Positions 1 through 54,932 of a DNA stretch of 64,000 bases are shown here, in pieces. The notes under the pieces were generated by a model. It was not told the origin of the DNA. It did no database searches and saw nothing but the letters and a program-made list of their open reading frames with translations. The DNA is from Fistulifera solaris (taxonomy: Eukaryota): contig AP026123.1 of NCBI GenBank assembly GCA_030295235.1, positions 124,001 to 188,000 of the forward strand, written 5' to 3'. The first letter of the stretch is position 1. Each line of letters starts with the position of its first letter. The position numbers and the translations under genes were made by a program.

Positions 1-3000
1 TTCACTCAATCTACAAATTGCTGGCGCTTACGAGCTTCAAGTGCGAGTAGCCAGCCCTATTGGCGATGGAGCATTCGTTGTGGGGCACCTGGAAAACAGG
101 AGCTCTATGCTACCGTTAATACGCTACCTGCTACGGGAGATCTCACCAATTCCGCGTCTATAACCCTTCCGCTTACGTTACCTGCGGAAAACTTTACACT
201 TCAAATTGGAGCCATACAGCCTGGTTGGAGTTTAATTTGGATGTCTCTTGAAGAGCTTGTTTTCAACTCATCACAAACGGAAGCTCCTCTGTCGCCAGTA
301 TTCGTATCAGACGCAGCAAACTACTCAGCAATGGATGGAATCACAACTGGAACATTAGCAGATGGGTCTTCATTCATTGGGTTTCTCGACCCATCTGATT
401 GGGTCTCATACAATGTACTGCTTCCTTTCACCGGGACATATAGAGTCGACGTCAGCGTCGCGAGTCCGGAAGGTGCTGGATCCTTTCAGGTCGCCAATAT
501 GATGACAAGAGAGGTGTACGGCACTTTTGATGATCTCCCTGCGTCTGGCGATTGGACGGAATGGAGAACAGCGAGCGAGTTGATCGGTCTACCCGAGGGA
601 GAATGGATGATGGAGTTGACAATTTTGGAAACTGGAATGAATATAAAATCGGTGACGATTTCACCTATAGAACCTGCGCCCTCAGAAGCGCCGGTGAACG
701 AATCCTCTGTGGTGCCAAGCCTTCCACCAGAAACGGAGGTGCCGGTGATACCTGACGTGTCAGGGAATAGCTCCTACATCGTACCAGACGATGCGTATTC
801 CATAACTATACCAGCGTCGATGTACGCTTCGATGGATGGCGTCGAAATGGCGGTTTCACCTAGTGGGGAATCGATTGTTGAATCGCTCGATCCGGGTGAT
901 TGGATTGCCTATCCGGTCTCGTTGCCGAAAGCCGGTCCGTTTATGATGGAAATGAATGTTTCCAGCCCCAGTGGCGAGGGCAGTTTTGAAGTCTACAATC
1001 TGATAACACGTGAGCTGTATACAAGGTTCGATCGAATACCTGCCAATCAAAACGTCTCTCAATTCAGTGCGGTCAGCGCTGTGGTAATACTTCCCGACGG
1101 TGACTTTTTTCTCGAGATCAGTGTCATCGAAGGAGGATGGAAATTGCAGGAACTGTCACTTACGGAGCTCGAAGAAATTTCAACCTCAAATTCAACGCTA
1201 CCCCCGGGACTGCTGTTTACTCAAACCATAGAAGCTGTCAACTACTCGTCCATGAATGGCATAGCCATTTCTGAAGACACAAACGGAAACCAAGTTGTGA
1301 GCGGATTGGATGCAGGCGATTGGGTTGCATACCCGTTAAACCTACCGTTTGACGGAACCTACCGGTTAGAAGTTAGCGTTGCCAGTCCTCAAGGTCAAGG
1401 TTCTTTTGCTGTGGAAAACTTGGAAACAGAAGAAGAGTATAAATTTGTTGAGAAACTGGCGTTTAGCGGGACATGGGAGAACTACACCACCGTCGAAACT
1501 TTTTTGGTACTACCGGCGGGTTTATGGACCATGAAAGTTCATGCGATAGAACCAGGCTGGAACTTGCATTCGTTGACTCTATCAAAAGATGGTGATGTAG
1601 AACCATCAGATTTCAACATCACGATTCCGGCGATCGACTACAGCGACATGACTGGAATCGAAGTTCAAGAATCAGCAAGTGGAGAATCTTACATAGGATT
1701 TATCGACGCTGGTGATGCTCTCTCTTACGAGTTGAGCCTCCCGGCACGAGGTATATATTCGATGCAGTTAAGAGTAGCCACACCAATGGGTGAAGGAAGA
1801 ATAGCAATCTTGGACAAGAACACAACTGAGGACTACGGCATCGTGACCGATTTCCCGCCGACAGGAGATTGGAACACTTTCGAGATGTTTTCGACGGAGC
1901 TTGAGCTTCCGGGTGGTGCATGGACCATGCAAATGGAGTTTCTCGAAGGAGGCTTCAACTTAGAAATGCTAGGCCTTACATTACTTCAAGTCATCGGAAC
2001 GGATCCGCCGACAATAGCGCCGTCAATATCATCAACCGACGAGCTGCTTTTCAATCTTGAAATTTCCGCTGTCGAATACAGCGACATGACTGGAATTGAA
2101 GTTCAAGAATCAGCGAGTGGAGAATCTTACATAGGATTTATCGACGCTGGTGATGCTCTCTCTTACGAGTTGAGCCTCCCGGCACGAGGTATATATTCGA
2201 TGCAGTTAAGAGTAGCCACACCAATGGGTGAAGGAAGAATAGCAATCTTGGACAAGAACACAACTGAGGACTACGGCATCGTGACCGATTTCCCGCCGAC
2301 AGGAGATTGGAACACTTTCGAGATGTTTTCGACGGAGCTTGAGCTTCCGGGTGGTGCATGGACAATGCAAATGGAGTTTCTCGAAGGAGGCTTCAACTTA
2401 GAAATGCTAGGCCTTACATTACTTCAAGTCATCGGAACGGATCCGCCGACAATGATTCCGTCTATGTCGCCAACTGCGGAGCCTCTCTTCCGAATCACGA
2501 TCCCTGCTGTGAATTTTACATACATGGTGGGCATCGCTGTGCAGGAAACAGCTGAGGGGGATCCCTTTGTCGGTTTCATCGACGCTGGTGATTCTGTCGC
2601 GTACCGAATAGATCTTCCTGCTCGTGGTATCTATACACTCCAGGCCAGGCTGGCGAGTCCTATCGGTGAAGGGTTGTTTACGATATCTGATTGGGAGACT
2701 TTGGAGGAATACGCTTTTGTCGATAAATTTCCGCCAAGTGCTGACTGGGAGTCATTCGAGACGGTGTCGAAGGACGTGGAATTACCAGGTGGTGAATGGA
2801 CGATGCAGGTCGAATTTTTAGAGCCTGGATTTAACTTGGAAAGACTCATTTTGACATTGATCGAAGAAATCGAAACTGAACCCCCGATAAGTGACGTGCC
2901 GACAATGGTTCCTTCCGCTATATCACTCAGTTTAGCGCCGTCCATTGAATCCCTCTTCACCATGATGATTCCCGCCGTCGACTACAGCGACATGACTGGA

Positions 3001-6000
3001 ATAGAAGTCCAAGAAACGGCCGACGGAGACCCTTATGTGGGTTTCATAGATCCTGGTGATTCTCTTTCTTACGGTTTAGATCTTCCAGCACGAGGTTTAT
3101 ATTCGATGCAACTACGAGTCGCAACTCCATTGGGCGAAGGAAGAATGGCTATCTCGGACAAGAATACGACGGAGGACTATGGTTTAGTAACGAATTTTCC
3201 AGCGACAGGAGACTGGGATACGTTCGAGGTGTTTTCAACAGAGCTTGAGTTTCCGGGTGGTGCATGGACCATGCAAATAGAGGTTCTCGAAGGCGGCTTC
3301 AACTTGGAGATGCTGGGCCTGACACTACTACAAGTAATAGAAACAGATCCTCCGACAAATGTGCCTACGATGGCGCCCACTGCTGAGCCTCTATTTCGCC
3401 TTACGATCGCTGCTGTGAACTTTGCCTACATGGAAGGCATCGCTGTGCAGGAAACAGCTGAAGGAGAGGTCTTTGTGGGGTATATTGACGCCGGAGACTC
3501 TATTGCATACGAGTTGAATCTCCCAGCACGAGGGATATACTCTATGCAGCTAAAAGTCGCCACACCATTGGGTGAAGGAAGAATAGCACTTTCCGATTGG
3601 GAAACATTTTTAGATTATGGCATGATAAGCAACTTTCCGCCGACAGGAGATTGGAACACCTTTGAAATCTTTTCTACTGAGCTTGAGCTTCCGGGTGGAG
3701 CATGGACCCTGCTTATGGAGTTTTTGGAAGGAGGATTCAACTTGGAGATGCTTAGTTTCACATTACTCCAGTTGGTTGAAACGGATCCTCCAACAATAGC
3801 GCCATCAATATCACCGACTGTGGAGCCTCTTTTCCGCGTCACCATCCCTGCTGTGAACTTTACGTACATGGAAGGTATTGCAGTGCAGGAATCTGCTGAG
3901 GGAGAGATCTTTGTGGGATATATCGACCCCGGCGATGCTGTGGCTTACGATTTGAACCTACCAACACGAGGAATATACTCAATGCAGTTAAGAGTCGCTA
4001 CGCCACTGGGAACAGGGCGGATAGCTATCACGAACGTCGATGCGACGGAGGCCTACGGGTTAGTTAGTGAATTTCCGCCAACAGGAGACTGGGACACTTT
4101 CGAATTTTTTTCGACTGAACTAGAGCTTCCAGGTGGTGCATGGATCATGCAGTTGGAGTTTCTCGAAGGAGGCTTCAACTTGGAGATGCTGGGTCTCACG
4201 CTTCTTCAAGTCATCAAAACGGATCCTCCAACAGTAGCGCCATCGGTAGCGCCCACTGCTGAGCCTCTTTTCCGCGTTACTATTCCTGCTGTAAACTTTA
4301 CTTTCATGGAAGGTATCGCCATTCAAGAAACAGCTGAGGGAGAGACCTTTGTAGGATATATTGACGCCGGAGACTCTATTGCTTACGATTTGAACCTCCC
4401 AGCACGAGGAATATATTCTATCCAATTGCTGGTCGCTAGTCCAATAGGCACGGGACAAATTGCCATCTCGGATTGGGAAACCTTTCAAGAATATGGACTG
4501 CTGACTTCGTTCCCTGCCAGCGGCGATTGGAACACTTTTGAGATGCTTTCGGCGGAGCTTGAGCTTCCAGGAGGTGCATGGACTATGCAGATGGAATTTT
4601 TGGAGGCAGGCTTCAATTTGCAGGCAATAGGGCTTACATTGTTTGAAATTATCGGAACGAGTGCGCCAAATATGTCGCCTATTACGTCATTGGCACCTAA
4701 TGCTTCGCCCACTTCGCCTGTAACGTTTGACGTTCTAATACCGGCCGCTAACTATCTGTACATGGAAGGAGTGACAGTTCAAAACTCTTCGCAGGGTACT
4801 GCGTTTCTTACTGGGTTGGACACTGGTGACTCCGTTGCATACGCTGTTTCCATTCCAGCCACTGGAGTATACAGTCTTCAAGCTAGTGTTGGAAGTCTCG
4901 TTGGTGAGGGTAAATTTGTCGTCGCCAATTGGGTAACATTTGAAGAATATGCCTTCATTGATACATTACCATCTACGGGGGACTTAGCACAATTTGATAC
5001 TGTTACAACAGATCTTGACCTTGCTAAGGGCCCATTGATCATGCAAATAGAGGTCATCGAGCCTGGATTTTCTCTGGAGTCGTTGAGATTGTCGAGCAGC
5101 GAGACTCAAACCATTACTCCTACCGCGACAATAGAGCCTTCAGGAAATCTGACTTTCGATCCAACAGAGATACCAACCCAGGTTCCGACAGAAGTTCCAC
5201 TCTTCGTCCTAGAAATTCCGGCCGTAAATTTCACGTACATGGACGGCATATCCATTGAAAAAACTGAAGATGGAGTCCCATTTGTCGGATACATTGATCT
5301 GGGAGATAGTGTGTCATATTCCGTTTTGTTACCATTCGCAGGTTCCTACAAATTGCAGTTGAACGTTGCAAGCCCGGAAGGCACAGGTCAAATGAAGATT
5401 TCTAATTGGGAGACCTTTGAAGCATATGGAATGATCGGCAACTTTCCAACCACCGCTGATTGGGCTACCTATGAATTAGTATCCACTGACCTGGATCTTC
5501 CTGGTGGAGAGGTGATTCTCCATTTTGAAGTAATTGAGCCTGGATTTAACCTGGAGTCCCTCGTCATCTCATTGCTCGAAGCAATCGAAACCCTTGCACC
5601 GTCAGAAGCTGGCAGCAGCCCTCCCTTGTTTTACATTGAGATTCCCGTCGAAGACTTCCTGTATTTTGAAAATGTGGAAGTCTTAAATTTCGAAGGAGAG
5701 CCATACCTTGGCTCCTTAGCACCAGGAAGTTCTGTAGCTTATTCTGTCGAACTTCCATCGACAGGCGCGTATAAGCTTCACTCGGGCGTAGGAAGTCCTG
5801 ATGGCAAGGGGCATTTGGCGTTTCAAATTGGGAAACATGGACTGAATACGCTTTCGTCAACAACTTTCCGGTGACCGGAAGCTTGACTTCATGGGAAACG
5901 GTTTCGACCGATTTAAGTCTTCCGGCAGGAAACCTTATACTGCAGATTGAAGTATACGAAGGTGAATTTACTTTACAGTCACTAGCACTCGAACTGACTG

Positions 6001-6854
6001 AAGGCTTGGACACCAATGTTCCGGTCGGTCCAATCGACAGCCAAGCCCCAATAGGACCTGGTGAGAGCCTAAGCCCAACTCGAAGCCCAATAGGCTTCAA
6101 TGAAACCATGTCGCCGACCGGCCCCGAACCGAATCCGGGAACAACGGCCCCAACTGTAACCCAGACAGAAGCTCCAGAGTTTTACCTCTTTATTCCTGCA
6201 CCCAACTATACTTCGTCGAATGGTGACTTTGGTTTAGAGACTGCCGAAGACGGAACTCAAAATATTGCTTTTCTTGATCCTGGAGACTGGCTTGGCTATG
6301 ACATATCTCTGCCATATGAAGGGCGGTACAGACTGGAAGCCAACATAGCTAGCCAAGCTGGTAATGGATCGTTTGTTGTGACGAATGTCGAAACCCAAGA
6401 AGAGTATGCTTTTGTAGACAATCTCCCTGTAACCGGTGACTGGAACGTGTACGAGTCCACGACAACTGAAGTAACTCTTCCGGACGGAGATTTCACTTTG
6501 CAAATCTTTATCGTTGAATCAGGCTTCAATATACGATGGTTCTCTTTGGAGCTTCTTGAAGCCACTGGAGGTGGCGGAGGAGGATCATCGAAATCGTCCT
6601 CCAAATCGTCTTCATCTTCCTCTTCCTCGAAAAAGTCGAAGAAGTCAAAGAAATCGAAAAAATCAAAGTCGTCCTCATCGTCCACAGAGAGCAGTGGCAA
6701 AGCATCGAAGAAAGCAAGCAGCGCCACGGAGAGTAGTGGCAGCGCATCTAAAACAACAAGTAGTGGCAAAGCGTCCAAAAAAGGCACAGAAAGTCCCGTC
6801 GTTTCTCGCCGTTTAAAGACAAAATCAAGGCGAAGAAGTCTAGCAAAGAGGTAG
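1..6854 (+). CDS. Giant tandem CBM6-like carbohydrate-binding repeat protein (at least 14 complete modules plus 1 partial) with Pro/Thr/Ser linkers and a C-terminal Ser/Lys-rich tail; 5' end lies outside the window
   Basis: About 146-aa repeats with the CBM6-type pattern (IPAxxYxxMxG...VGFIDxGDxxxY...G.YxxxxRVASP.G.G...P.TGDWxTF...GFNL). ORFs 241-5874 and 5871-6854 join via a missing G in aagggg at ~5807-5811, which restores DGKGAFGVSNWETWTEYAFVNNFPVTGS. Another frameshift lies near 92-100 (frame 2 AGAYELQVRVASPIGDG to frame 1 ELYATVNTLPATGD). Confidence 0.85.
1639..2453 (+). repeat. Near-identical intragenic tandem duplication of one CBM6 module (period 438 bp)
   Basis: 1639-~2015 matches 2077-~2453 with about 3 synonymous differences. 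The antisense ORFs 1700-1921 and 2138-2365 give the same peptide. Confidence 0.95.
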
Positions 6855-7058
6855 ACTAGATACAGAGGGTTCACATCACACATTGCAATAGTACCTTTTC
6901 ATCATACACTCGCAAGCAATAGCGACGATCACACACTCTAGAAGGAGAAGCCTACGCTTCCTGTATGTACAGTTAAGTTAAAAATGTATTGACGTCGAAA
7001 TTACCATTAAGGTGTGACACATCGAATTATTCTTTGTCAGTCTCCGGAAATCGTCAAA

Positions 7059-9797
7059 TCATATAGCGTAATTGGGGTGAACGGCAAGAGGCGTATTTGC
7101 TTCTTGCTGTTTGTTAGTGGGCATGGGCCCCACGGTTACGAGGACGTGATCTGTATTGACGAGTCGTCGTAAAACTAGGTTAACCTTCTTCCTCGTAGCT
7201 TCCAAGGCCTCAACAGAATCACCTATATCCGATTCGACCTGACTTAGATACCACTCTACTACGTCCTTCCATTTCCAGTAAACTGGATCACCTTCGTCGT
7301 CGTCTGACTCCAACGATCTCAGCTGCGTCGCTATCATATGTGCCATAGCCTCGTACTCTTCAAAAGAAATCTTTGTCTTTTTCTTTTCTTTTCTAGAAGG
7401 AGGCTGTTCTGAAGGTTCGTATTCACCTGGTCGAGGCTCTGCTTCGTCTGCCTGATGCGGCGCGTCGTCGGGATTGTCGTCTCCATCATCGTCGTCGCCA
7501 TTGTCATGGTCACCGCCTTCGTCAACCGCGATATCCGACGTTTCTACTCTCAAAATGCTGGTTTTTAGTAAGCGGAAGGCTTTGTTGACATAGTCGGGTT
7601 GGATTTCAGAATCACAATGCAACCGTGCCAGCGCTTCGGAGAGCCGAATCAACGACTCTAGCTGACGCACAGTGATACGATATGCTGAGCGACTGGCACC
7701 CAGACTATCACTTTGACGCAGTCTTCGATAGCAGTCTACCAATACGCGCTGAGAAGCCGGCGTAATCTTCGGGTGGATAGTTCGAGCAAAACGAATGTAG
7801 CGCTGGATTTGCTCCATCGTATATGGTGCGGTGACGAGTGTTTCTTTGCACCTGTGGACGTTCAAGATGTGTTGTGCCACGCGACGGTCGGTAGCTGGAT
7901 TGCAATCATCCAGAACGACAAAGAACAAATCGAAACGAGATAGAATCGGTGCACTGAGGGCGACGTTGGCGCTCAGAGTCTTGCTGCGATCGTATCTTCC
8001 GTACACAGGGTTAGCGGCCGCAAGAATGCTGGCCCTGGCATTCAAGGTTGCTTGAATACCTGCTTTGGTGATACTGATGGTCTGCTGTTCCATAGCTTCA
8101 TGAATAGCCACTTGATCGGACGGATCCATCTTATCAAACTCGTCAATACAACATATTCCATTGTCAGCAAGAAGCAACGCACCGGCTTCAATTCCATACT
8201 CTCCCGTATCCGAGTCTCTCTGAACAGCCGCTGTCAGACCGGCTGCACTACTTGCCTTTCCGACACAATAGACACTGCGATTGCTAAAGGCGTGCACATA
8301 CTTGAGAAACTGTGATTTGGCCGTGCTGGGATCTCCCACAATGCAGAGATTGATATCACCGCGGAGCTTCAAGCCATCCGGAGCCGTCTTGTGCACTCCT
8401 CCCAGTAGTTGCAGTAAAATACCTTTCTTAATCTCAAGATGACCGGCTGTATTGGGACAGATGGACTGCGCCAACAGCTCGTACAAGTTCGGCGTACTAC
8501 GCATATCACGTATCTCCTGTCGTTGCTGCGGAGTGAGTTCCAATACAACTTGCTCGGGAGTATCTTCTTGCGGCTCGACACCATTGACCCAGAGGTTGAC
8601 TTTATTACTTTTATCGGAAGCACCAAGAATACTGCTCACTAAGAAGCACGTCCGATACGTCAATTCCTTGACACCGGTCGCTTGCAAACCCCGCACACCC
8701 GTACTATCCGTATTTTGATTGGAGATACTGCGCGGAGCTTCTCCCGCTCGAGCCAAGGCTCCACCATCGGGGATAACAACCCAACTTCCCGTGAGTATGA
8801 CGGTATCACCCGCCTTGCAACGTTCGACCATTTCGCCGCGACAAAAGACATCCATACTGCGTGGCATGCTGCCGGGCGGTATCTCATGACTCAATTCTTG
8901 GACTCGCAACTTTTGCCAATCAACGAATTCCGACATGCTGGTTTCTAAAGTAAAATGTCGTTTGTTTTTACAACGCGGATTGCGACATCGCGTCGGACGG
9001 GTGTGATGAAATTGTTGTTGAATGGCTTGTGACACAAGCCCGCAGTCTTGACAGCGAAAAACACCTTGCAAGAGTTCGGGACGAACTTCACTACTGCGTG
9101 TAACGGTTCCTTTGACACTGACCAAGCTACCGATTTGTTCCATGCGCAAATGACGCAATTTTCCGAGAACGGGTAAATCATGAAGGGCGACAAAGAAACT
9201 CTTGTGCGTATGCAACTCGGGATGCTGATAATGAATGAATTGCGTCAATCCTTTGCGAAGAAAGGGCTCAAAGCGGATGAATTCGGCTTGTAGAGCTTCT
9301 GCGAGATCATAATCGTGTCGTTGCAAATGGGAGAAATCAATCAATAACGTATACGCGAGTTGATTTTGATTTCCCCGATCTTCATCGGTTTCCTGTTCTA
9401 ACAGTTTGCGAGCAATCCGTGATGCTTGATCGATGTAAGGATAGTATTGCGTTTCTTCGTAATCACCGTCCGCAGTCTCGACTGTCGTGCGCTCCGAACT
9501 GTGAAGGAAGAAAAAAAAAGAGTGAAAAAGAAGAAAACGAAAAGCTTTGAATGAAATAAATGACACAAATAACACTTACAAAGTATCAAGAAACGCCATG
9601 AATCGTTCTTTCACAATTTCACCATTCGGATCCGTGATTTCCGGTTCGATTACAACCGCTTCATCGGCTTCGCGTCGTTCGGGTTGCGGCATGGCCGCGA
9701 CTTCCGCCATGGCTTCCGCTTGCTCTCGCGTCGGAAGCGCGGCAGCTCGTTCCGCCTCATTCTCTTGTTGTGAACGTACCGACGCCACGGAAGCCAT
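7059..9797 (-). CDS. MCM6: DNA replication licensing factor MCM6; intron 9499-9579
   Basis: Zn finger CQDC...CRNPRC, Walker A GDPSTAKSQ, Walker B CCIDEFDKM, arginine finger SRFD, and MCM6-type EIPPGSMPRS and GVRGL..GVKELTY. A GTAAGT...CAG intron joins ORFs 9576-9797 and 7059-9575 in frame. Confidence 0.93.
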
Positions 9798-52209: not shown

Positions 52210-53841
52210 TTACGGCCCCAGCGGCAGAAAGTCGTCCAACCGATGGAAAATTGTGTCGATCCTGCATTTGGATTCAGATCCAAATCCGATACTGACAAAA
52301 ACAACATCAGGAGCCCCTCTGCGTCCTCGTTGAAATTCGCAGACGGCAATGAAAAGAGATTGCCCCGTGCTCTTGTAGTCTTTCATTTCGTACACATCGC
52401 CGACGCCAAGTCCGGCTACGCTTTCTGACCCACCATCTCCCTGCGTCGTTAGGATCACTTGATTCCTTTTGTTGCCCGTGCCAATATTCATACCTTTAGC
52501 ACGGTTAAATGTAACAAAGTATTCGTCACGAATGCTGATTATCACCGCCTCGTCCGCCGACGTTTTGTCGAAGTCTACCATTGGTGCTAATTTAATTAGC
52601 TGGTCTCCTGATGTCAATGGATCAATCCAATGATGTCGTGTTTTATACCACCCAAGTTCCCAGCTTTTGATCCCATTGAAGCACCTTCGTGGTTGTGTCT
52701 GGCTCCTGTACCCAGCTGCCATGTAGTCAGTACTGTCGCCATACTTCTCACCGTCTTGATTGGCGTGCGTTAGGCCCAAAGTGTGTCCTATTTCGTGCAT
52801 GGTTGCAGACAGAGACAGACACCAGTCATCATTGAACTGTGCTCTCCAATGCCCTACACCTGCACTGGCTACCCACGGCCGTGACCCGACATTCGGTGGC
52901 AAGCACACTAGAACCTTCTCGCCGAGCTCGGACATGCTCAAGCCGCTCGTTTTCTCTAACTCAGCTTGAGCTGCCGTCGCCAAAGCCAGTCCTGAATCGA
53001 AATTCGATGCAGGTTCGTTCACAGTAACAGAAAGGATTCCAGCAGGAGCCAATTGAAACTTGAGTCTCCCGAATGAACAAGTGTCAAACTGTGTCACGAA
53101 GTTGACCTTCGACTCGTCAAACAGTGTGTCTTTGACATCATCGGCCGTGAAAGTAAGTGACGAGTCAATAGTCGACACGAGAACAACAGCAATATCGACA
53201 GTTCGTTTTTCCCGTGAAGATTCTATGTTCATTTTTGGGTTCTTCATAGTCACCAAGGATACTGTCGCATTACTGGTCACTTCCAGAGTGCCCCTGTCAA
53301 GCACAACATCTGTGAACTTGGCGTAGAGGCTATTGCTGAGTAGCATTTTCTTGTTGGTTGTAACCCAAGATGTGTTGAGACCTTTCACCGTAATAAGATC
53401 TCCTGATTCGACATCACCCAACATGGGAACGCAACCTATTTCGTCGTGTCCAGGTTCTTCGTCTTCTTCGGTCGGCGTGTTTATGATGGGCATGAATGCT
53501 TCATCGTATGCACCATTATTACTTGTCTTTTCTTTACTTTCTTCCTCATGCGCTTGAAAAGTATCAAGAACGATGAGATGGCATACGATGTCGGTTTCCA
53601 TTTTGACTCTCGCCGATGACATGCGGCGACCACGAACCAGTTGACGCTCTTCTTGAGCAAGTTCTGTCAGGGCTTGGAGTTTCTTCATCGGCGACAGGAG
53701 TTCTAAGCTTCTATTATCAACAAGCCTCCGTTTTGCTTCAAGTTCATGCGACCCTTGACGAGGATCGGTGAGTTTGACGATTAAAGACACGACGAAAAGC
53801 GTCGTCGCCGCGGCTAGGATGTTCCTTATCTGCCGCCTCAT
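52210..53841 (-). CDS. Secreted or membrane-anchored metalloprotease, peptidase M11 (gametolysin)-like
   Basis: Zinc motif HEIGHTLGLTH; YGDSTDYM Met-turn; CFNGIKSWELGWY; QFDTCSFG; FNRAKGMN; N-terminal TM or signal followed by RRL. Confidence 0.85.
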   Translation of the reverse strand: MRRQIRNILAAATTLFVVSLIVKLTDPRQGSHELEAKRRLVDNRSLELLSPMKKLQALTELAQEERQLVRGRRMSSARVKMETDIVCHLIVLDTFQAHEEESKEKTSNNGAYDEAFMPIINTPTEEDEEPGHDEIGCVPMLGDVESGDLITVKGLNTSWVTTNKKMLLSNSLYAKFTDVVLDRGTLEVTSNATVSLVTMKNPKMNIESSREKRTVDIAVVLVSTIDSSLTFTADDVKDTLFDESKVNFVTQFDTCSFGRLKFQLAPAGILSVTVNEPASNFDSGLALATAAQAELEKTSGLSMSELGEKVLVCLPPNVGSRPWVASAGVGHWRAQFNDDWCLSLSATMHEIGHTLGLTHANQDGEKYGDSTDYMAAGYRSQTQPRRCFNGIKSWELGWYKTRHHWIDPLTSGDQLIKLAPMVDFDKTSADEAVIISIRDEYFVTFNRAKGMNIGTGNKRNQVILTTQGDGGSESVAGLGVGDVYEMKDYKSTGQSLFIAVCEFQRGRRGAPDVVFVSIGFGSESKCRIDTIFHRLDDFLPLGP

Positions 53842-54932
53842 CTTTGCTCCCTCTGTCGAGCCAACTGCAGAGTCCGAATTTAACGAAGATGAAGTAATGG
53901 TTGAGGGTTTAACGATCAAGTGAGGTCCAATTTGGATAACTGCGCTTCTGTAGAGGAAAAACGTGATTTGCAAACGACCGCCTATTTTGTTTGTGGCATC
54001 GGATGGATTTTGAATTTCGACATCGAAAGAGGACTTCACGAAAAAGAGGCACAATTATTTGGGATGACTAATGACTCTGCTTAGTACTGTAATGACCAAG
54101 GAAATTCAATCACATTATTCAGAAAAGTAGAATACTTAGTAACCTTAGTCATTCATTGGCGAAGAGGTTAAAAGAGACAAGAAAAGAATGACTTAGGGAG
54201 CTATGACTATGTTTTTCCGTTCCGGAAGCCTACCTTTGAAAGATAGTACATTATGTGTCACAGTTCTCGCACTGAAATGACCGCCAATCTCCAATCGCAG
54301 AGATGTTGCGCGTTGCGCAATCACGTTTGTTGCGTGAGCAAAACGTGAGGTCAGTTTCGTTTTAATTAATCAAGTACCGGTGTATTGTCAATGTCAGTAT
54401 TAAAAAATCCTGTTAATTACCGTTGCCATGAATATTATAGGCTTCTATCTACAGTATATTGTATAGCTATGTTGCTGATGGCTTGCCACGTGTGTTGGCG
54501 CCAACTTTTCTCTCTGTCTTTCTGTCTTCCTCGTTCTTTTTTTCTCCACAGTCGCAGTTTCGCGGTTCGCGTTTTACAACAATCGCTGAAATACACTATG
54601 ACAAGAATGTACTTGAATGACGTAAGTTTATGAATAGATAGATGAGTTCGTGTCGTTTCGGTCAAGTGTACAGGAATGCTGATACTCGATCAGACACACG
54701 TAGAGACTTTTAGTGACGCACTTTGTCGCTGCAAAATGGAGTTGGGCGAGCCATCGAAAACGTGAGATCTTTTTCATGGCGGTGATTTTGATGGGTGATG
54801 GGCCCGTGGATTATTTTTGTTAGACAAGTGACACGTCTCTCCACAAGAGCCATCATCAGTTGAACGTTGGCATTCCATTCCTTTTATACGCTTGAAATCT
54901 GCTAGTACTTCATACACTCAAGCACTTTCACG

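Follow-up and report, generated by a model that had tools for sequence, protein, structure and literature searches.

A Fistulifera solaris gene joins fifteen CBM6 modules to a Ser/Lys-rich tail and may encode a secreted glycan cross-linker

There is no molecular understanding of how diatom walls keep their polysaccharide layers attached to silica. Found in association with these walls are glucose polymers, callose and mannans, and mannan and glucan layers are tightly bound to the silica, with no linker named in the part of the source cited here (PMC3633991); this and the other papers cited below are cited for parts of their text only. Silaffins, frustulins, cingulins and silacidins carry an RXL motif after the signal peptide and at the end of repeat units, their lysines are arranged in KXXK motifs, and in the cingulins KXXK regions alternate with Trp/Tyr-rich regions (PMC4557024). 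Here we describe a gene of the diatom Fistulifera solaris, public model FisN_5Hh053, which occupies positions 2-6854 of the forward strand of a 64-kb stretch of contig AP026123.1 (positions 124,001 to 188,000 of the contig; hereafter the window). Its product joins an array of CBM6 modules to a Ser/Lys-rich C-terminal tail, and we consider it somewhat probable that it functions as a secreted multivalent glycan cross-linker equipped with an electrostatic, polycationic anchor.

A pentalysine cluster (PLC) has been defined as five non-consecutive lysines within 12-14 residues, and a silaffin-like screen has been based on a signal peptide plus repeated KXXK motifs (X = S or G) lying 1-6 residues apart (PMC5501833). 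In cingulins, the lysine-enriched regions (LERs) consist of clustered K(X)2K motifs, and a single cluster can be enough to direct GFP to the frustule; two newly described proteins, picked partly for such lysine regions, are frustule-localised and have RXL motifs, one of them five residues from the C-terminus. The frustule-localised Tp12162 provides a precedent for RXL near the end of a protein (PMC9650480). On the carbohydrate side, bacterial CBM6 modules (CBM, carbohydrate-binding module) occur in 1-9 copies attached to catalytic domains, whereas the F. solaris protein has 15 copies and no enzyme. The CBM32/PL7 alginate lyases of Nitzschia sing1 offer a parallel as a duplication-built diatom nuclear family with tandem bacterial-type CBMs and signal peptides; they differ from the present gene in CBM family, in the catalytic PL7 domain that most members carry and in their demonstrated nutritional role (PMC11960938). 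Non-catalytic CBM arrays, tandem CBM families of diatoms and lysine-cluster wall proteins are thus each known already; the combination of a CBM6 array with a Ser/Lys tail is new, as is the number of modules. The sequence itself is already public, in truncated form, as a hypothetical CBM6 protein. An earlier reading of the letters alone (the sequence-only reading) had known of no description of this architecture; our literature searches, which did not cover subscription journals or bioRxiv supplements, likewise brought up none, neither for the gene nor for diatom CBM6 arrays ending in a Ser/Lys tail, and, judged by title or abstract, no paper on a diatom CBM6 protein.

As assembled, window positions 1-6854 are open in frame 1 from 1 to 5874 and in frame 3 from 5871 to 6854. 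Two apparent frame breaks result, from frame 2 to frame 1 at 92/93 and from frame 1 to frame 3 at 5805/5806; bases 2-91, read in frame 2, carry on CBM6 module 1. Logan contigs of four public runs (X1-X4, possibly all DNA) were aligned to window positions 1-7400. No joints appear in these contigs, which, with no run among those listed being on record as RNA, bears on neither splicing nor expression; the low cover of X3 and X4 at 6917-7163 was left out of account. X1 and X2 contigs carry an additional A after position 92, and an additional A follows position 5805 in contigs of X1 (two), X2 (two) and X3 (one), accounting at each site for the entire depth; both omitted bases are one A within an A run of the assembled sequence. 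Since every covering read contig has the extra A at both sites, the breaks are assembly errors, the gene is intact and it is not a pseudogene. A word-indexed protein search retrieves the 2051-residue public protein P0002 ('hypothetical protein FisN_5Hh053 [Fistulifera solaris]', also 'CBM6 domain-containing protein'), which is 100% identical and reads GKGAFG across the 5805 site, matching the read contigs. An intron or a programmed frameshift at 5805 is ruled out, the reads simply containing one A more. Once the two missing bases are restored, the reading frame runs without interruption from upstream of the window as far as 6854, where it closes with a TAG stop codon (6852-6854, forward strand).

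The two breaks in the assembled window, the bacterial nature of the nearest named relatives outside the diatom and a copy number of modules 5 and 6 that no listed contig piece bridges might be read as marks of a pseudogene, an assembly artefact or a bacterial contaminant, a reading that we hold to be very improbable. No covering contig, in two to three runs, shows either break, the modules form a clade of their own apart from bacterial ones, the ratio of nonsynonymous to synonymous divergence (dN/dS) is low, and variants fall mainly on third codon positions (25 of the 33 substitution positions within the open reading frame, ORF, among the variants listed). The other large ORFs on the same sequence are eukaryotic housekeeping genes (MCM6, DnaJ, a class I tRNA synthetase, RNA 3'-phosphate cyclase, adenylate kinase and others), and because of these flanks the locus is nuclear diatom DNA and not a bacterial contaminant. 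A second copy is found in the same runs and as protein P0027. The genome of F. solaris comprises two diverged subgenomes. The same runs contain variant contigs, which show that the gene has a second version under the same organism label: in X1 at 489-588, for example, the variant reaches a depth of 18/42, and an X4 piece over 6099-6686 differs by 20 substitutions and, at 6593, by a 21-nt deletion that keeps the frame.

P0027 (634 residues) supplies the start of the protein that lies before the window. It aligns with the window product colinearly and without gaps, with identity at 480 of 549 residues (87.4%), the first residue encoded in the window lying opposite residue 78 of P0027. Residues 1-77 of P0027 comprise a short basic and hydrophobic start (MMKRLLPIALSILRVTYIIA), MPSRRL and the beginning of module 1, the N-terminus reading MMKRLLPIALSIL...IIA-MPSRRL and running straight into the module; when projected from P0027, the first ~45 residues of module 1, the signal peptide and the RRL map upstream of the window. 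Between the P0027 start and module 1 there is no catalytic or glycoside hydrolase domain. If the gene is built like P0027, the window would lack only about 77 codons, and the protein would have exactly 15 modules and no catalytic domain; the count is then 15 rather than open-ended because module 1 of P0027 directly adjoins the signal-peptide-like start. The sequence-only reading had spoken of at least 15 tandem modules with no catalytic domain in the window: the number stands, its open end falls if P0027 is taken as the guide, and on the same guide the absence of a catalytic domain would extend to the region before module 1. A signal-peptide-like start, no upstream hydrolase and repeats that are CBM6 are what we find at the sequence level, the N-terminus being supplied by P0027, and these are the three sequence-level points on which that reading had staked its case.

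The public model P0002 covers window positions 331-6559. It begins at an internal Met within module 2 (MDGITTG...) and ends in ...GDWNV-LQYTMVLFGAS, a C-terminus that corresponds to a 74-nt GT..AG intron (6449-6522, forward strand), a frame shift and an early stop. We reject this intron. Splicing would cost module 15 its last strands, which include the binding-site Asn and align with those of the other 14 modules, and the protein its whole tail. All 11 variants listed in 6098-6545 lie at third codon positions, among them the four listed inside the proposed intron (6461, 6467, 6506 and 6512). Given the integrity of module 15 and these third-position variants, 6449-6522 is probably coding, the Ser/Lys tail would be part of the protein, and the public model is probably mis-predicted. 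The model appears to be truncated at both ends, hiding the putative secretion signal and the tail. Composition-based silaffin-like screens of the public proteome would miss the protein because both ends, the tail included, are lacking from this model.

The repeats, taken from their letters as CBM6-like, match Pfam CBM_6 (PF03422) at E=1e-147 and 485 bits (cut-off 28.9), in 12 stretches within window positions 1-5871 and one more within 5871-6851. A profile of our own, made from eight modules and run over the read-through with X at both breaks, finds 15 CBM6 modules, the first cut by the window start. All lie on the forward strand. Pfam and our profile both place module 2 (M2, 295-678), M3 (790-1179), M4 (1210-1590) and the complete M15 (6174-6566), which holds the cleft-A triad discussed below and GDW. 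Our profile places the partial M1 (2-264, with the frame break at 92/93), M5 (1606-1995), M6 (2044-2433), M7 (2482-2871), M8 (2950-3339), M9 (3388-3777), M10 (3826-4215), M11 (4264-4653), M12 (4720-5109), M13 (5197-5586) and M14 (5623-6008, with the second assembly error, the missing A after 5805). Modules 5-11 (1606-4653) form the young core of the array, with PT linkers of 16-26 residues and a 438-nt period that Tandem Repeats Finder detects across 1696-4620. Within this core the M5/M6 pair (1606-2433) shares 95% nucleotide identity, and its repeat number rests on the assembly: positions 1903-2116 are bridged by no contig piece among those listed, and contig depth there is uneven, with X2 at 0 in 1730-1976 and at 48 in 2224-2470.

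The modules are strongly acidic and the linkers rich in Pro, Thr and Ser, as had been read from the letters. Net charge per module runs from -12 to -19 (-5 for the partial M1), and the read-through, which lacks Cys, totals 317 Asp and Glu against 84 Lys and Arg and has 25 N-x-S/T sequons. Linkers number 14 and measure 5-55 residues; Pro, Thr and Ser together make up 0.20 of the shortest, with its 5 residues, and 0.43-0.70 of each of the other 13; the longest (55 residues, 6009-6173, forward strand) is rich in Pro, Thr, Ser and Gly.

An AlphaFold model of M11, computed from a 12-module alignment, is an all-beta sandwich with a mean confidence (pLDDT) of 95.4. Its top Foldseek match is 1UXZ (template-modelling score, TM, 0.88; root-mean-square deviation 1.6 Å; 29% identity), the CBM6 (CmCBM6-2) of Cellvibrio mixtus lichenase 5A (PDB). 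Next comes 5FUI, the CBM6 of Zobellia galactanivorans laminarinase LamC (TM 0.86); all 15 of the first matches listed are CBM6 entries, and the same entries are recovered by a sequence search of solved structures. In the 1UXZ alignment, Tyr33, Trp92 and Asn121, which we take to be the cleft-A binding site, lie opposite the Y of GYI, the W of GDW and the N of FNL. This triad of aromatic residue, Trp and Asn is retained in 10 of the 15 modules (M2, M5-M11, M13 and M15). The Trp aligned to 1UXZ residue 39, presumably part of the second cleft of CBM6, is present only in M2-M4 and M15 and is lost in M5-M14. The F. solaris protein shares the fold of the bacterial modules 1UXZ and 5FUI and, in these 10 modules, their triad; it is unlike them in its low identity (only 24-29%), in the loss of the Trp39 equivalent from M5-M14 and in having RXL, N-glycosylation sequons and a putative eukaryotic signal peptide, the last known from P0027 and recognised by eye.

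For the 16 of 28 module pairs with computable dS (Nei-Gojobori, eight gap-free modules), dN/dS is 0.08-0.27, values that are rough because dS mostly exceeds 1. Low dN/dS and retained binding residues together indicate that the modules are under purifying selection and that most of them should bind sugar.

Word-based protein searches scored the ~8000 candidates with most words in common, and whole-protein relatives above 3425 residues were covered through the module profile only. Beyond the two gene copies, the relatives with a name that the word searches give are multidomain enzymes of bacteria, which share 22-36% identity and come from Reichenbachiella, Clostridium, Microbulbifer, Cellvibrio, Herpetosiphonaceae and Niastella. 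The HMMER module search returns 7465 representatives at E <= 0.001, with at most nine matched stretches per protein among the best 150 of them. A paralog found with the module profile, FisN_5Hh185 (P0076, 787 residues), has a hydrophobic start, RRRL and five CBM6 modules, and the best HMMER match after the F. solaris proteins, P0087, has 733 residues, a signal-peptide-like start and five modules. P0087 and P0104 (494 residues), the closest relatives outside Fistulifera, carry many N-glycosylation sequons and have five and three non-catalytic CBM6 modules, respectively. P0076, P0087 and P0104 resemble the protein described here in their signal-peptide-like start (with RRRL in P0076), their CBM6 modules (5, 5 and 3) and the absence of a catalytic domain; they are unlike it in that their modules number at most one third as many, PT linkers are few and the Ser/Lys tail is absent.

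A maximum-likelihood tree, unrooted, was computed from 67 modules over 132 columns: 14 modules of this gene (M1, being partial, was omitted), five of P0076, 11 from three eukaryote-looking proteins, 15 from six named bacteria and 22 from other proteins. All 19 F. solaris modules fall together (94/96), adjoining the modules of P0087 and P0104, and these 27 modules split from the other 40 (91/81). The phylogeny with bacterial CBM6 that the sequence-only reading had proposed thus sets the F. solaris modules apart from the bacterial ones. M5-M11 form one young clade (100/99), and the array appears to have arisen by expansion within a lineage-specific family. An origin by gene transfer from bacteria is not established, as the tree, being unrooted and having few named rows and 132 columns, indicates no donor. 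P0029, a eukaryote-looking protein, opens with a signal-peptide-like sequence and carries three CBM6 modules, strung on long PT/S linkers, and a C-terminal part that resembles GH5; in the tree these modules fall among the bacterial ones, away from the Fistulifera family.

Behind module 15, a Gly6 hinge (6567-6584) leads into the Ser/Lys-rich basic tail (6585-6851). The tail holds the lysine cluster KKSKKSKKSKKSK (6630-6668), two copies of GKASKK and, within its last 15 residues, RRL (6807-6815) and RSL (6834-6842), all on the forward strand; the Gly6 hinge, SGKASKK and terminal RRL picked out from the letters are present, and RSL is a further element. GGGGGG plus the tail make up 95 residues, with 38 Ser (40%), 21 Lys (22%) and a net charge of +24; in the best window of 100 residues, Ser reaches 39% and Lys 20%. 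Half of the protein's lysines (21 of 42) are located within 4% of its length. K-x-x-K motifs with any x number nine in the tail against none in the 2189-residue body, and tail windows with at least five lysines (five or six) number 12 at length 12, 13 at length 13 and 15 at length 14. No comparable Ser/Lys stretch occurs elsewhere in the six frames of the 64-kb window. A search of the Protein Atlas with module 15 plus the tail gives only bacterial CBM6 clusters, at 0.84-0.87, below lead level.

Comparison with Thalassiosira pseudonana Sil3, CinW2 and Tp12162 and their PLCs and LERs, as far as the cited parts of the sources describe them, reveals a similar Ser/Lys segment with at least five lysines in 12-14 residues. 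As in silaffins and cingulins, RXL is found after the putative signal peptide (SRRL behind the hydrophobic start of P0027) and near the C-terminus (RRL and RSL), and PT-rich stretches occur elsewhere in the protein. RXL, which the sequence-only reading gave as a proteolytic processing motif, is accordingly in place at both ends, the first as read from P0027, and Tp12162 furnishes the precedent for the distal one (PMC9650480). There is, however, no sequence homology to these proteins, and KXXK with X = S or G is absent. The tail lysines sit in consecutive KK pairs, as KK-S triplets, unlike the published non-consecutive pentalysine examples. Unlike the cingulins, the protein has a single C-terminal tail with no alternation of lysine (KXXK) and Trp/Tyr-rich regions, and its bulk is a folded acidic lectin array. 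The tail called silaffin-like in the sequence-only reading would thus deserve the name for its composition and its clustered lysines, and not for the stricter motif; from the tail, membership in a silica-protein family cannot be claimed.

All six Ser codons are used in the tail (6, 9, 7, 5, 4 and 7 times), as are both Lys codons (13 and 8). Microsatellite origin as a full explanation of the tail is rejected given this codon diversity, and because the codons are diverse rather than the product of plain microsatellite slippage, the Ser/Lys composition appears to be kept at the protein level. This bears on the possibility that the tail is a low-complexity repeat expansion at the 3' end with no specific role, the protein being a soluble secreted multivalent lectin that aggregates glycans or recognises the beta-glucan walls of parasites. 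Such a tail is missing from the CBM6 arrays of P0076, P0087 and P0104, the tail does not contain the strict KXXK (S/G) motif, and the 21-nt tail indel of the variant contig is what a slippage-prone sequence would be expected to show; that indel is nevertheless in frame, the codon usage points to a composition maintained in the protein, and half of the protein's lysines are concentrated in so short a segment. On this evidence we judge a tail without a role to be unlikely.

The account that we prefer is that of a secreted glycan cross-linker with a polycationic anchor. A protein of ~2,360 residues would enter the secretory pathway at the endoplasmic reticulum by means of its signal peptide and would be trimmed at RXL; its sequons may be glycosylated, and its Pro/Thr/Ser linkers are probably O-glycosylated. 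The mature protein would carry 15 CBM6 beta-sandwich modules on short linkers and no catalytic domain. Because about 10 modules keep a predicted working cleft-A site, it would act outside the cell as a long multivalent lectin that cross-links polysaccharide by avidity. The body is strongly acidic (net about -230), whereas the flexible tail behind the Gly6 hinge is polycationic (net +24). The tail would most likely serve as an electrostatic anchor to a negative partner, either biosilica, in the manner of the lysine clusters of silaffins and cingulins, or an acidic wall polysaccharide.

The array would most likely bind a chain of beta-glucan or xylan type in the wall or mucilage of the diatom itself. 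Our first guess, made with low confidence by analogy, is an endogenous wall beta-glucan, since the nearest solved relatives bind beta-glucans and glucose polymers associate with diatom walls. The array might instead belong to an adhesive or mucilage component, residing in the raphe or capsule mucilage or binding plant, macroalgal or biofilm glycans, with the tail adhering to acidic extracellular polymeric substances or mineral substrata and not to the silica of the cell itself. The adhesive trail proteins CaTrailin4 and Ca5609 are likewise very large, modular, acidic and secreted, with spacers rich in Pro, Thr and Ser (PTS), comparable to the PT/S linkers seen here, and their genes were truncated in short-read assemblies, as is the model of this gene (10.1101/2023.03.06.531300). 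The nearest bacterial CBM6 modules, moreover, reside on enzymes for exogenous beta-glucans. Against such a function, the trail-protein hallmarks, CAA, GDPH and Cys-rich repeats, are all absent from the F. solaris protein, which has no Cys at all. Its short linkers give it a modest PTS content, compared with PTS repeats of ~23-70% in trail proteins, and the CAA domains, Cys-rich DUFs and 50-70% PTS of the latter stand opposite CBM6, no Cys and short linkers; CBM6 is not mentioned for trail proteins in the cited part of that source (10.1101/2023.03.06.531300). An adhesive role appears doubtful to us in view of these differences.

Returning to the anchored cross-linker, the silaffin reading of the tail comes from composition only, and anchoring to silica is possible; that silica is the actual partner of the tail we regard as rather unlikely. 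A more specific form of the proposal, which we put forward tentatively and regard as improbable in its full extent, is a coupler of mineral and carbohydrate. The silaffin-like tail would be incorporated in or on the biosilica during or after its deposition, the acidic body would be repelled from it, and a brush of 15-module lectins about 100 nm long would capture wall beta-glucan or mannan. With at least 10 predicted sugar-binding sites and a polycation resembling those that target silica, the protein is a concrete candidate for a glycan-silica linker, and such a coupler, if real, would for the first time connect the silica of the frustule with its polysaccharide coat at the molecular level. 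Should the tail have nothing to do with silica, the protein would still be a non-catalytic CBM6 array of unusual length in a lineage that rarely has CBM6, a finding of moderate importance only.

Several observations weigh against the proposal. The N-terminus is known from the second copy P0027, with the signal peptide judged by eye, and the Ser/Lys tail is absent from the public gene model. The strict K-[S/G]-[S/G]-K motif has no match in the tail, which contains one K-SSS-K, and the KK pairs make its lysines denser than those of published clusters. The lysine clusters of CinW2 can be mutated or deleted without loss of frustule targeting, and the C-terminal half of CinW2, with two clusters, is not targeted to the frustule, so that for this protein the clusters are neither necessary nor sufficient (PMC9650480). 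Within the array, five of the 15 modules are without the full triad: M1, M3, M12 and M14 are degenerate, two or three residues being lost, and M4 is without the aromatic residue. The CBM6 structures matched by Foldseek bind varied glycans (xylan, beta-1,3-glucan, mixed-linkage glucan, cellobiose and neoagarohexaose/agarose), and the ligand would accordingly not be readable from sequence. Finally, in a table of carbohydrate-active enzymes covering 13 species of stramenopiles, alveolates and Rhizaria, CBM6 counts are non-zero only in Aureococcus and Nitzschia sing1; CBM6 is thus recorded in one of eight diatoms, F. solaris not being among them (PMC11960938), and any role would be lineage-specific.

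Three minor observations concern the surroundings of the gene and the runs examined. An MCM6 homolog at 7062-9575 on the reverse strand, with MCM P-loop, OB, lid and MCM6 C-terminal domains, is convergent with the CBM6 gene, the two stop codons lying ~200 nt apart. An ORF at 52213-54054, also on the reverse strand, encodes a gametolysin-type M11 peptidase domain (E 2e-13) and is by position unrelated to the CBM6 gene; this peptidase family is known from algal cell-wall lysis. In run X2, labelled as a wetland metagenome, 93% of the gene's sampled words are present with very few differences, which suggests that the same or a very close diatom strain was present in that environmental sample.

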